A stretch of DNA of 10,006 nt from a virus, in UHGV virus genome UHGV-2159551. One strand, given 5' to 3'. Positions within the stretch are counted from its first letter, which is position 1, and every line of letters starts with the position of its first letter. Position numbers and translations under genes: made by a program. Of the stretch, positions 179 through 1,250 are shown in pieces. Under the pieces are notes generated by a model. That model worked only from the letters and a program-made list of their open reading frames with translations, had not been told where the DNA came from and did not search any database.

Positions 179-445
179 TTAGTCCTGCTGTCGACCAGGG
201 GCATCATAACCTTGTCTTTTTCGCCATGCTTTTTCACCTCTCTCCCATATAACCGTGTCATTAGTTAGCTTTCTAAATTTCGCTAATACTTTTTTATCAA
301 TGGATAAATTTCCATTAGCATTCAAATATACGAAAGTATCGCCAAATAACTCTTTTATTTTATATACAACAGTTTCTTGATATAGCCAGTTTGTGTTTTC
401 CAGCTCTGATTTCATCCATTGTGCAACATCATCTACAGTAGCCAT
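179..445 (-). CDS. Hypothetical 88-aa protein, distal gene of the cargo cassette; no recognisable motif
   Basis: ORF from the six-frame track. Its ATG is preceded by AAGGA (minus-strand upstream reads aaaaggacataATG) and lies 10 nt after the stop of the 264-aa gene, suggesting co-transcription. Hydrophilic, Lys/Glu-rich, no TM segment. Confidence 0.55.
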   Translation of the reverse strand: MATVDDVAQWMKSELENTNWLYQETVVYKIKELFGDTFVYLNANGNLSIDKKVLAKFRKLTNDTVIWERGEKAWRKRQGYDAPGRQQD

Positions 446-455
446 ATATGTCCTT

Positions 456-1250
456 TTATTTTGGTGAGATTATTACTTTTACCGAAATTGAATTTGTACA
501 ACGCTCAAGGTCATTCTCCACACCAATTGGATTGGCAATTCTACCTTCAGGGTCATATACAAAACACACTAAAGTTTCGCAATCAGGATGCGTTTGATAA
601 TGAGCTATATCAACAATTAATTGCTCACCAACTTCTTTTTGCTTGAGATTTTTTCTCGTTTTCTTTAACTCGATAATGATTTTTTCATTCTTTAACAAGA
701 AGTCAACTCGTGTTGAAGATCCTGCATAGCTTGGCGTATATTCTTCTGGTCTGACATCCTCGAAATGAATCTTCAAAAGAGCATGAAATAAATCCTGAAC
801 GTCATATTCGTCATTTATTTCAATGGTTTGTCTATTATCGTGTCGTTGCTGTAGCTGTCTTGCAACCTTATGAAATTGATGGCAAATTAGTTCAACAAGA
901 GCTACGGGATCATTTTTTGTCTCTATGAAATTCCCGTCAATTCCATATTCTTCAATCTCAGCAATCATAGACGTAAGAAGAGAATGTGCTTCATCTAAAC
1001 CACTACAAAATGCGTTATCGAAAACATAATCTGGTGTATCACCAACAAATGCCATTAAAGAGTATCGAATTGAGCCAAATTCTTTTTTGTGATCTGACTC
1101 TTCACCAAATATTTTTGATATGGCGGTCTTAGTGTTTCTTTGCCATAAGTTAAAACTTGGGTTATTTCCTGTACTCCTTCGTTCATTTTGTATTGCTGGG
1201 ATTTGCTCCCGTTGTCTTTTTAATATCTCGATAGCTTTTTCTGGCTTCAT
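456..1250 (-). CDS. Putative PD-(D/E)xK (restriction-endonuclease-like) nuclease-fold protein, 264 aa, with an N-terminal domain of unknown function
   Basis: ORF from track; strong SD (cttgaGGAAAGataATG on the minus strand). C-terminal region reads DVQDLFHALLKIHFEDV ... TRVD(183)FLL ... KIIIE(194)LK(196)K ... EVGEQ(210)LIVDI, i.e. helix, then D, then ExK about 10 residues later, the hallmark layout of PD-(D/E)xK / Mrr-like catalytic cores. Codons checked: D183 at 702..704, E194 at 669..671, K196 at 663..665. Fold assignment is inference from motif only. Confidence 0.7.
   Translation of the reverse strand: MKPEKAIEILKRQREQIPAIQNERRSTGNNPSFNLWQRNTKTAISKIFGEESDHKKEFGSIRYSLMAFVGDTPDYVFDNAFCSGLDEAHSLLTSMIAEIEEYGIDGNFIETKNDPVALVELICHQFHKVARQLQQRHDNRQTIEINDEYDVQDLFHALLKIHFEDVRPEEYTPSYAGSSTRVDFLLKNEKIIIELKKTRKNLKQKEVGEQLIVDIAHYQTHPDCETLVCFVYDPEGRIANPIGVENDLERCTNSISVKVIISPK

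Follow-up and report, generated by a model that had tools for sequence, protein, structure and literature searches.

Abortive infection (Abi) by a single protein that holds both a sensor and a toxic effector is exemplified by SpbK, a sensor-TIR protein whose trigger is a phage portal protein. PDC-S35, a defence candidate, joins a four-helix N-terminal domain to a TIR domain of the CAP12/PycTIR-like kind. In the long-B prokaryotic Argonaute (pAgo) system BPAN, the effector is a nuclease: the non-specific DNase EcbAgaN breaks down genomic DNA during abortive infection, and DNA degradation and cell killing are both lost when it carries D298A or E309A/K311A (PMC10620215). The nuclease family PF18742 has been described as an alternative effector in variants of Detocs (10.1101/2023.01.24.525353). 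Filamentous phages of the CUS-1/YpfPhi type have a published description, in which the open reading frames (ORFs) adjacent to attL differ between YpfPhi and CUS-1 and are not assigned a function (PMC4266046). Here these systems are compared with a gene for a 264-aa protein in UHGV virus genome UHGV-2159551, a stretch of 10,006 nucleotides (the window) whose content is a 9.5-kb CUS-1/YpfPhi-like filamentous prophage of E. coli, integrated at dif. Judged from its sequence, the 264-aa protein is a candidate single-protein anti-phage suicide nuclease.

The gene (WP_001527023.1; 456..1250, minus strand) encodes a two-domain protein that matches Pfam PF18742 and, over its full length, phrog_29450. 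It is followed by a gene for an 88-aa DUF6953 protein (WP_001527024.1; 179..445, minus strand; Pfam PF22266). Between the nuclease stop codon (TAA, 456-458) and the DUF6953 start codon (ATG, 443-445) lies a 10-nt spacer (446..455, minus strand) with an SD (Shine-Dalgarno)-like AAGGA at 451-455 for the DUF6953 gene. The spacer upstream of the nuclease gene (1251..1316, minus strand) has an SD motif, GAGGA, at 1257-1261, 6 nt before the ATG. A preliminary description of this DNA, made from the letters alone, had reported two minus-strand genes with a 10-nt gap and an SD motif each, and the two ORFs are exactly as it had them. Both ORFs are taken to be real genes because they have 3,617 and 91 homologue clusters, respectively.

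A conserved catalytic centre

The C-terminal nuclease domain of the 264-aa protein comprises residues 115-264 (459..908, minus strand) and has a restriction-endonuclease (REase) fold. Residues 118-264 match Pfam PF18742 (REase_DpnII-MboI) over positions 2-150 of the 150-position model (E 6.9e-59; 198.1 bits against a cut-off of 27), and in the AlphaFold2 model of the protein (pLDDT 85.5) the C-terminal domain shows the alpha-beta-beta-beta-alpha-beta order of the restriction-endonuclease fold. Among 40 homologues from many phyla, D150, E169, E170, D183, K196 and K197 are invariant, and E194 is conserved in at least 90%. The codons of the catalytic core fall within 663..704 on the minus strand (D183 at 702-704, E194 at 669-671 and K196 at 663-665). 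This segment, RVD183FLL...IIE194LK196, aligns with RID298LYL...IIE309VK311 of EcbAgaN, which is the sole solved relative detectable by sequence (PDB 23wq, E 2.7e-4). The protein thus reads as a bona fide PD-(D/E)xK member of PF18742 with an apparently intact D-ExK centre: the fold and the triad D183/E194/K196 had been proposed in the preliminary description, and the family match, the conservation, the EcbAgaN alignment and the predicted structure all bear the proposal out. The same description had pointed to RQLQQRH as a possible HEPN motif. That suggestion falls away: position 137 is H in some homologues and Y in others, RQLQQRH falls within helix 1 of the REase model, and the protein has no HEPN match. 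Membership of the HEPN RNases was considered and rejected, as there is no conserved R-x4-6-H within a HEPN domain.

The family is large. At E <=0.001 the homologue clusters include many that are more than 50% identical across phyla, and relatives occur in Proteobacteria, Bacteroidota, Firmicutes, Cyanobacteria, Planctomycetota and archaea.

Domain exchange

The N-terminal domain (residues 1-105; 936..1250, minus strand) is a predicted four-helix bundle with conserved positions, in the same 40 homologues, at F33, W36, R38, T40, F48, G84, S94 and E98. Residues 1-107 match the PADLOC profile of PDC-S35 (PDLC05005) over positions 1-103 of 264 (E 3.6e-11), and the motifs F..W.RDT...IFG and G..S...E are common to the domain and to PDC-S35. 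An exhaustive phmmer search with residues 1-112 as query gave 462 representatives, and the C-termini of the best 148 were classed. Within these best 148 of 462, the C-terminal domain is a CAP12/PCTIR TIR in 46, a TIR_2 in five, a TIR in two, a DpnII-MboI nuclease in 18 and a Hypoth_Ymh domain in one, and many C-termini are unassigned. The relatives in which this N-domain is joined to a TIR domain match PDC-S35 end to end (positions 1-262, E about 1e-90), and one N-domain relative (P0255) carries an SpbK-like TIR.

The nuclease domain is likewise found with other N-termini. By hidden Markov model (HMM) of each domain, 29 of 80 species-level loci have the REase domain (C-domain HMM E <1e-65) and lack this N-domain; in those 29 the tblastn identity is 58-68% where the match spans the C-domain only, and the N-region is some 100 residues long. 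An allele in Pectobacterium brasiliense is 79% identical over residues 119-264 and has no detectable similarity over 1-118. Since N-domain relatives carry TIR effectors and REase relatives carry other N-domains, both halves appear to be exchangeable modules. Swappable toxic effectors on a common N-terminal module are the architecture of single-chain immune sensors, and we read the 264-aa protein as a putative effector-swapped sibling of the computational candidate PDC-S35, here borne by an inovirus.

A gene that normally stands alone

The nuclease is a solo gene in the 80 species-level loci and in about 20 other viral contigs. DUF6953 was sought by tblastn and by HMM on six-frame ORFs: it was found within 6 kb of the nuclease in none of the 80 species loci, and near none of the nuclease homologues outside Enterobacterales. 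All-against-all clustering of the 152 nearest ORFs gave no recurrent neighbour family. When 148 of the 152 were compared with Pfam, the matches included four PIN, three phage integrase, three AAA_21 and two PemK domains, some TrwB/TrwC and one N6_Mtase; with PADLOC, the GajA, Old, AriA and mad models matched a few of the nearest ORFs and a type I methyltransferase (MTase) model matched two. A relative sits in a tailed prophage of Citrobacter koseri, another in an island of Riemerella rich in insertion sequences and toxin-antitoxin (TA) genes, 26 IMG/VR contigs carry one, and so do 207 plasmid records, 161 of them conjugative. The gene is normally found alone, in prophages, plasmids and variable islands.

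Among the plasmid relatives, WP_000163250.1 (263 aa, 44% identity) is a solo "hypothetical protein" on an IncX4 plasmid (NZ_CP023905.1, locus 3878-4669). Its IncX4 carriers are many conjugative plasmids of ~33-35 kb in E. coli and Salmonella.

The genus Pectobacterium offers a direct comparison. In Pectobacterium polaris the nuclease is 85% identical, keeps every catalytic residue and is not accompanied by DUF6953. One site upstream of a SnoaL gene holds this lone nuclease in P. polaris and the N-swapped nuclease followed by DUF6953 in P. brasiliense, which points to exchange of the cassette, outside phages, at one fixed chromosomal position. In one genome the P. brasiliense pair adjoins two tyrosine-integrase genes.

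The small downstream protein

The 88-aa protein had been described as having no recognisable motif. It is in fact a DUF6953 protein that matches PF22266 over model positions 1-73 of 74 (E 1.8e-28; 98.9 bits, cut-off 27). A winged-helix fold is predicted for it with confidence, and it has a conserved basic tail at its C-terminus (W74-R75-K-R77 ... R85). It is probably a small nucleic-acid-binding winged-helix protein, to judge by the model. DUF6953 follows the nuclease in the E. coli/Salmonella inovirus and follows the N-swapped nuclease on the P. brasiliense chromosome; in Morganella it comes after a 52-aa nuclease remnant. Six further contexts have DUF6953 and no nuclease. In E. coli it stands by itself in an island that also has Abi_2, Mrr_cat, resolvase and PemK genes; in tailed prophages it lies singly between the terminase genes; it comes directly after DUF2158 in two metagenomic lineages and after a GDPD gene in a third; and one unrelated viral contig (L099) carries it.

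DUF2158 (about 60-67 aa) is repeatedly a neighbour of DUF6953, downstream of it in the Salmonella cassette (locus 5321-5524) and upstream in the two metagenomic lineages, which are unrelated. DUF2158 and DUF6953 may form a small conserved unit of their own.

Because the intact P. polaris nuclease stands alone, DUF6953 is not needed to tolerate the nuclease, and because DUF6953 occurs in nuclease-free contexts, it is not dedicated to it. In some Enterobacterales it travels with the nuclease as a dispensable and separately mobile companion. Most likely it regulates or modulates locally, or is a moron independent of the nuclease, and is not an obligatory partner or antitoxin.

Variable cargo of the prophage

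Alignment of the window with three sister prophages places the two genes in a variable cargo slot (175..1311): homology ends at ~174 and resumes at ~1312, the stop of a 140-aa ORF, and between these borders the sister sequences are unrelated. The slot, which both cassette genes fill, is the only variable one of the phage. In UTI89 it holds a 369-aa ORF (extracted locus 2284-3393), in EC36 a 363-aa ORF (extracted locus 2295-3386), and in FDAARGOS_1257 a Zn-ribbon protein and a 159-aa ORF (extracted locus 2723-3477). Neither the 369-aa nor the 363-aa ORF has a Pfam or PADLOC match, and the 159-aa ORF has no informative assignment from either source. The Zn-ribbon protein is of the ECs_2282 type, with a faint Lar/PDC-S64-like match. 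These alternative cargos are further candidate accessory functions.

Counts and composition point the same way. The cassette is present in 24 of 5,426 complete E. coli genomes, chromosomal every time, and the neighbouring backbone in 96 E. coli genomes at >=80% coverage and 180 in all; GC content is 35% in the cassette and 42.5% in the rest of the phage. That the two genes are extra cargo, as the preliminary description held, therefore stands: the slot varies among sister prophages, and both GC and genome counts differ from those of the backbone. The slot gene of CUS-1 is not puvA, which encodes a virion protein needed for receptor binding (PMC4266046).

The same phage with the same cassette occurs in Salmonella, there with a third small gene, DUF2158. 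In Klebsiella pneumoniae, tandem inovirus copies with a 100%-identical cassette lie on a 248-kb IncFIB/IncHI1B plasmid (NZ_CP132684.1, 69288-80079), and a 99%-identical DUF6953 is reported from Proteus terrae. From the Klebsiella plasmid copy and the Proteus gene it follows that the phage crosses genera and can integrate into a plasmid. The INPHARED phage collection, searched at the DNA level and by tblastn, contained neither the phage nor the protein; the element was found only as a prophage or as an IMG/VR contig.

The element and its integration site

Complete E. coli chromosomes match the window at 99-100% identity. The inovirus core, by Pfam and annotation, includes Rep (II/X family, Phage_CRI/G2P; 2457..3509), Zot (6440..7465) and a GspD-type secretin (7465..8709), and an RstR-like helix-turn-helix repressor (1839..2285) lies in the opposite orientation to the core genes. 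A G5P-like DNA-binding protein, small membrane and coat proteins, a large g3p-like ORF and DUF2523 are present as well. Rep, Zot, the secretin and the repressor are thus all located outside the cassette, as had been said of the canonical inovirus genes. Between the repressor and the cassette is the gene for a 140-aa multi-pass membrane protein (1317-1739, minus strand; phrog_4174). It has no Pfam family and is kept in all phage variants; it is backbone, not cargo. The four minus-strand genes (repressor, 140-aa protein, 264-aa protein and 88-aa protein) are all co-oriented.

The right end of the element is marked by attR, an exact E. coli dif (GGTGCGCATAATGTATATTATGTTAAAT; 9582..9609, plus strand), by comparison with the dif consensus. 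With its core genes and an exact dif at attR, the element has the traits of a CUS-1/YpfPhi-like dif-integrating inovirus. The left end is less simple. Window positions 1-93 are an exact repeat of 9503-9595, which means that the window opens within the previous phage copy of a tandem; strain MINF_1D has a tandem array of the element with at least two copies and a period of 9,504 bp. In single-copy relatives, host DNA (the hipBA side) lies to the left of the XerC arm, a place that the phage right end occupies in this window, and the UTI89 prophage has the hipBA/tam neighbourhood at its insertion site. The cassette had been placed beside attL; what it abuts is a dif-like junction and not a simple attL, and the left flank (1-93) is the preceding phage copy, not host DNA. 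The inter-copy junction, at which GGTGCGCATAATGTA meets CGACTCGTTATGTTGAAA, matches dif imperfectly, unlike attR at 9582-9609, whose dif is exact.

The cargo slot is bounded on this side by a long imperfect hairpin (76..175) with a GC-rich core at 113-144. In it, the dif XerC-arm-like GGTGCGCATAATG (79-91) is base-paired with an inverted copy of itself, CATTGTGCGAACC (160-172), and the fold is strong (RNA fold -50.9 kcal/mol, z -8.25; DNA fold z -8.14). It is unchanged in four phage variants, and the slot begins directly after it. It is probably the attP stem of the single-stranded DNA genome, that is, a folded attP of the CTXphi/YpfPhi type for XerCD integration, for which YpfPhi and CTXphi provide the precedent (PMC4266046), and it is possibly a terminator for the cassette as well. 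A strong terminator had been called at 112..150. That segment is the core of the longer attP-like hairpin, and only four T's follow it downstream.

Function and alternatives

On balance we favour, with modest confidence, the reading that the 264-aa protein combines sensor and effector nuclease in one self-contained polypeptide, and that its gene is exchangeable cargo of a dif-integrating inovirus. The N-domain would hold the nuclease off and sense a cue associated with infection, or would drive an activating oligomerisation. Once triggered, the REase domain would degrade DNA with low sequence specificity, in the manner of its relative EcbAgaN, and this degradation would stop superinfecting phages or other invaders, perhaps with loss of the cell. 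Such abortive infection or exclusion would benefit the lysogen, and hence the prophage, and expression from the repressor-side strand would make the nuclease active in lysogens. A defence or exclusion flavour had been suggested for the cassette from the start, and it is consistent both with an N-domain common to TIR-effector candidates and with an REase domain used by BPAN and by Detocs variants. A wider proposal, which is tentative and falls short of an even chance, is that the four-helix N-domain marks a large family of single-chain immune proteins, in which one conserved trigger-sensing or oligomerising module is wired to TIR NADases (PDC-S35), DpnII-MboI DNases and other, unassigned C-termini; the inovirus copy would then protect E. 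coli, Salmonella and Klebsiella lysogens by abortive infection, and DUF6953 would tune or retarget the nuclease in Enterobacterales. A DUF6953 that is a dedicated add-on would explain how the pair was kept together through an N-domain swap. As to novelty, the phrase "undescribed system" holds in one respect: literature on DUF6953, PDC-S35, stand-alone PF18742 proteins and the WP accessions yielded no functional study, and the text of the DefensePredictor preprint has nothing relevant. It does not hold in another, since Pfam and PHROGs families exist and the sibling architecture is listed as PDC-S35.

Several observations count against the sensor-effector nuclease. The structural neighbours of the N-domain are generic four-helix bundles only, and with such fold matches the word "sensor" derives from domain shuffling alone. 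PDC-S35 is itself one of 145 computational "guilt-by-embedding" candidates (10.1101/2024.01.29.577857). The neighbour censuses had no background control, so that the defence-gene neighbours are suggestive only. A scan for consensus sigma-70 promoters upstream of the cassette found none, and transcription may therefore enter the cassette from the upstream genes for the repressor and the 140-aa protein. Finally, the nuclease-DUF6953 pair persists through the N-domain swap at similar divergence (79% and 77%), and its survival hints at a lineage-specific functional link.

A different explanation is a two-component TA or Abi module in which the nuclease is the toxin, DUF6953 the antitoxin, immunity protein or obligatory regulator, and the pair stabilises the prophage. 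The 10-nt spacing and co-orientation fit such a module, as does the recurrence of the pair in the E. coli/Salmonella inovirus and in P. brasiliense despite the exchanged N-domain; the Morganella DUF6953 beside a decayed nuclease is what would be expected of an orphaned antitoxin, and winged-helix folds are common in antitoxins and regulators. The distribution of the two genes speaks against it. None of the 80 species loci, and none of the viral loci outside this phage itself (L103-L125), pairs the nuclease with DUF6953; the IncX4 plasmid relatives are solo; the lone P. polaris nuclease, 85% identical with intact catalytic residues, occupies the same chromosomal site as the P. brasiliense pair; and DUF6953 exists free of any nuclease, with DUF2158 or GDPD as its neighbour or by itself amid terminase genes. 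We regard this module as improbable, and the "nuclease effector with small partner" or TA-like layout of the preliminary description is, as an obligate one, unsupported on the same grounds, and its reading of the pair as a two-gene system is supported only in part: no DUF6953 at the 80 loci, no recurrent neighbour and an intact nuclease on its own in P. polaris. The family name REase_DpnII-MboI raises the further thought of an orphan type II REase of the DpnII/MboI kind that cuts an unmethylated site such as GATC and spares the host through a methyltransferase such as Dam. E. coli is Dam+, and the window has 22 GATC sites against 38 expected, but the count is uninformative on DpnII-like specificity because the depletion spans the whole window. 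An N-domain exchangeable with TIR effectors is no trait of restriction-modification (R-M) systems; the window has no MTase, and the 148 neighbours include one N6_Mtase (Pfam) and two type I MTases (PADLOC); the phyla and archaea that have homologues more than 50% identical differ in methylation background; the dedicated DpnII family of Pfam gives no match at E up to 1; and the closest characterised relative, EcbAgaN, is non-specific. An orphan REase is accordingly very unlikely. Both it and the TA module are contradicted by the distribution data.

The nuclease might also be a weapon or maintenance factor between elements that excludes rival inoviruses, plasmids or superinfecting copies, or that acts by post-segregational killing, to the benefit of the element more than of the host. 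The family does travel on inoviruses, tailed prophages and many conjugative plasmids; EcBPAN, with a related DNase, responds to a plasmid origin (PMC10620215); and the YpfPhi repressor gives only partial superinfection immunity (PMC4266046), a gap that further exclusion factors could fill. Anti-phage defence is an equally good fit to this sequence evidence, however, and many homologues are in chromosomal contexts without obvious element genes. Sequence alone cannot separate inter-element competition from anti-phage defence; we consider the former unlikely. Least credible, and close to dismissible, is a nuclease of the inovirus life cycle, which would, for example, process the replicative form, excise copies from tandem arrays or degrade host DNA, with DUF6953 as the subunit that targets it to DNA. 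The cassette does adjoin the attP hairpin, and a winged-helix protein could target DNA, but near-identical sister backbones hold unrelated genes in the slot (CUS-1 and YpfPhi differ there too), of the related genomes that bear the prophage, at least 96 in number, only 24 have the cassette, and the nuclease family lives mostly outside inoviruses.

A single-chain immune nuclease of this kind would not be conceptually surprising; its interest lies in a large and compact family, in being directly testable and in an unusual vehicle. If the protein is an immune nuclease, it would represent a compact and widespread single-gene system, with more than 3,600 protein clusters in bacteria and archaea and on prophages and IncX4-type plasmids, and it would link PDC-S35 to an effector-swapped sibling, such that one N-domain trigger could validate both candidates. 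It would likewise show clearly a filamentous prophage putting its attP-adjacent slot to use as a swap site for defence-like cargo. The CUS-1/YpfPhi lineage is common in extraintestinal pathogenic E. coli, and the question bears on prophage persistence and on host range in phage therapy. Natural N-domain swaps, and the presence or absence of DUF6953, already exist as a comparison set.

Relation to described systems

Within the phage family, the nearest counterparts are the attL-adjacent ORFs of YpfPhi (YPO2271/YPO2272) and CUS-1 (orf1/orf1a), which are likewise two variant-specific ORFs in the same slot. Their sequences are unrelated to the present cargo, which differs from them in having assignable folds (REase and winged helix) and a very large family of homologues outside inoviruses. 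For DUF6953, the defence-linked winged-helix regulators CapW and BrxR, and F-112 of SSV1, offer a resemblance at the level of the fold only (4-14% identity); unlike CapW and BrxR, DUF6953 has no WYL or other sensor domain and is encoded downstream of the effector, not upstream.

The 264-aa protein itself can be set against three kinds of described protein. With PDC-S35 it has in common the N-domain, a length of ~264 aa, a single gene and a two-domain logic. Its effector, in contrast, is a PD-(D/E)xK nuclease and not a TIR domain, and the match to the PDC-S35 model ends at residue 107 and does not extend over the full length. With bAgaN (EcbAgaN; Aga_Helical-REase in PADLOC) it shares a homologous REase domain (PDLC02411, E 1.3e-34), a helical N-region ahead of that domain, and a D-ExK centre aligned with residues proven essential in EcbAgaN; bAgaN is an abortive-infection effector that acts through DNA degradation. 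The bAgaN N-region, on the other hand, is about 215 aa long and has no match to this N-domain, and bAgaN is activated in trans by pAgo, whereas activation of the 264-aa protein would be intrinsic or by another factor: the window contains no Ago ORF, and no Pfam Ago/PIWI family was present among the genes called around the solo homologues. With SpbK and other single-chain sensor-TIR Abi proteins, it shares a short N-terminal domain followed by a C-terminal toxic effector, carriage on mobile elements and a size of ~260-280 aa; the effector is a DNase here and an NADase in SpbK, and the N-terminal region of SpbK is not matched. The 264-aa protein belongs to none of PDC-S35, BPAN, HEPN, type II TA pairs or R-M systems. 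By analogy, it would work most like the single-chain sensor-effector Abi proteins, with an effector most like that of bAgaN.

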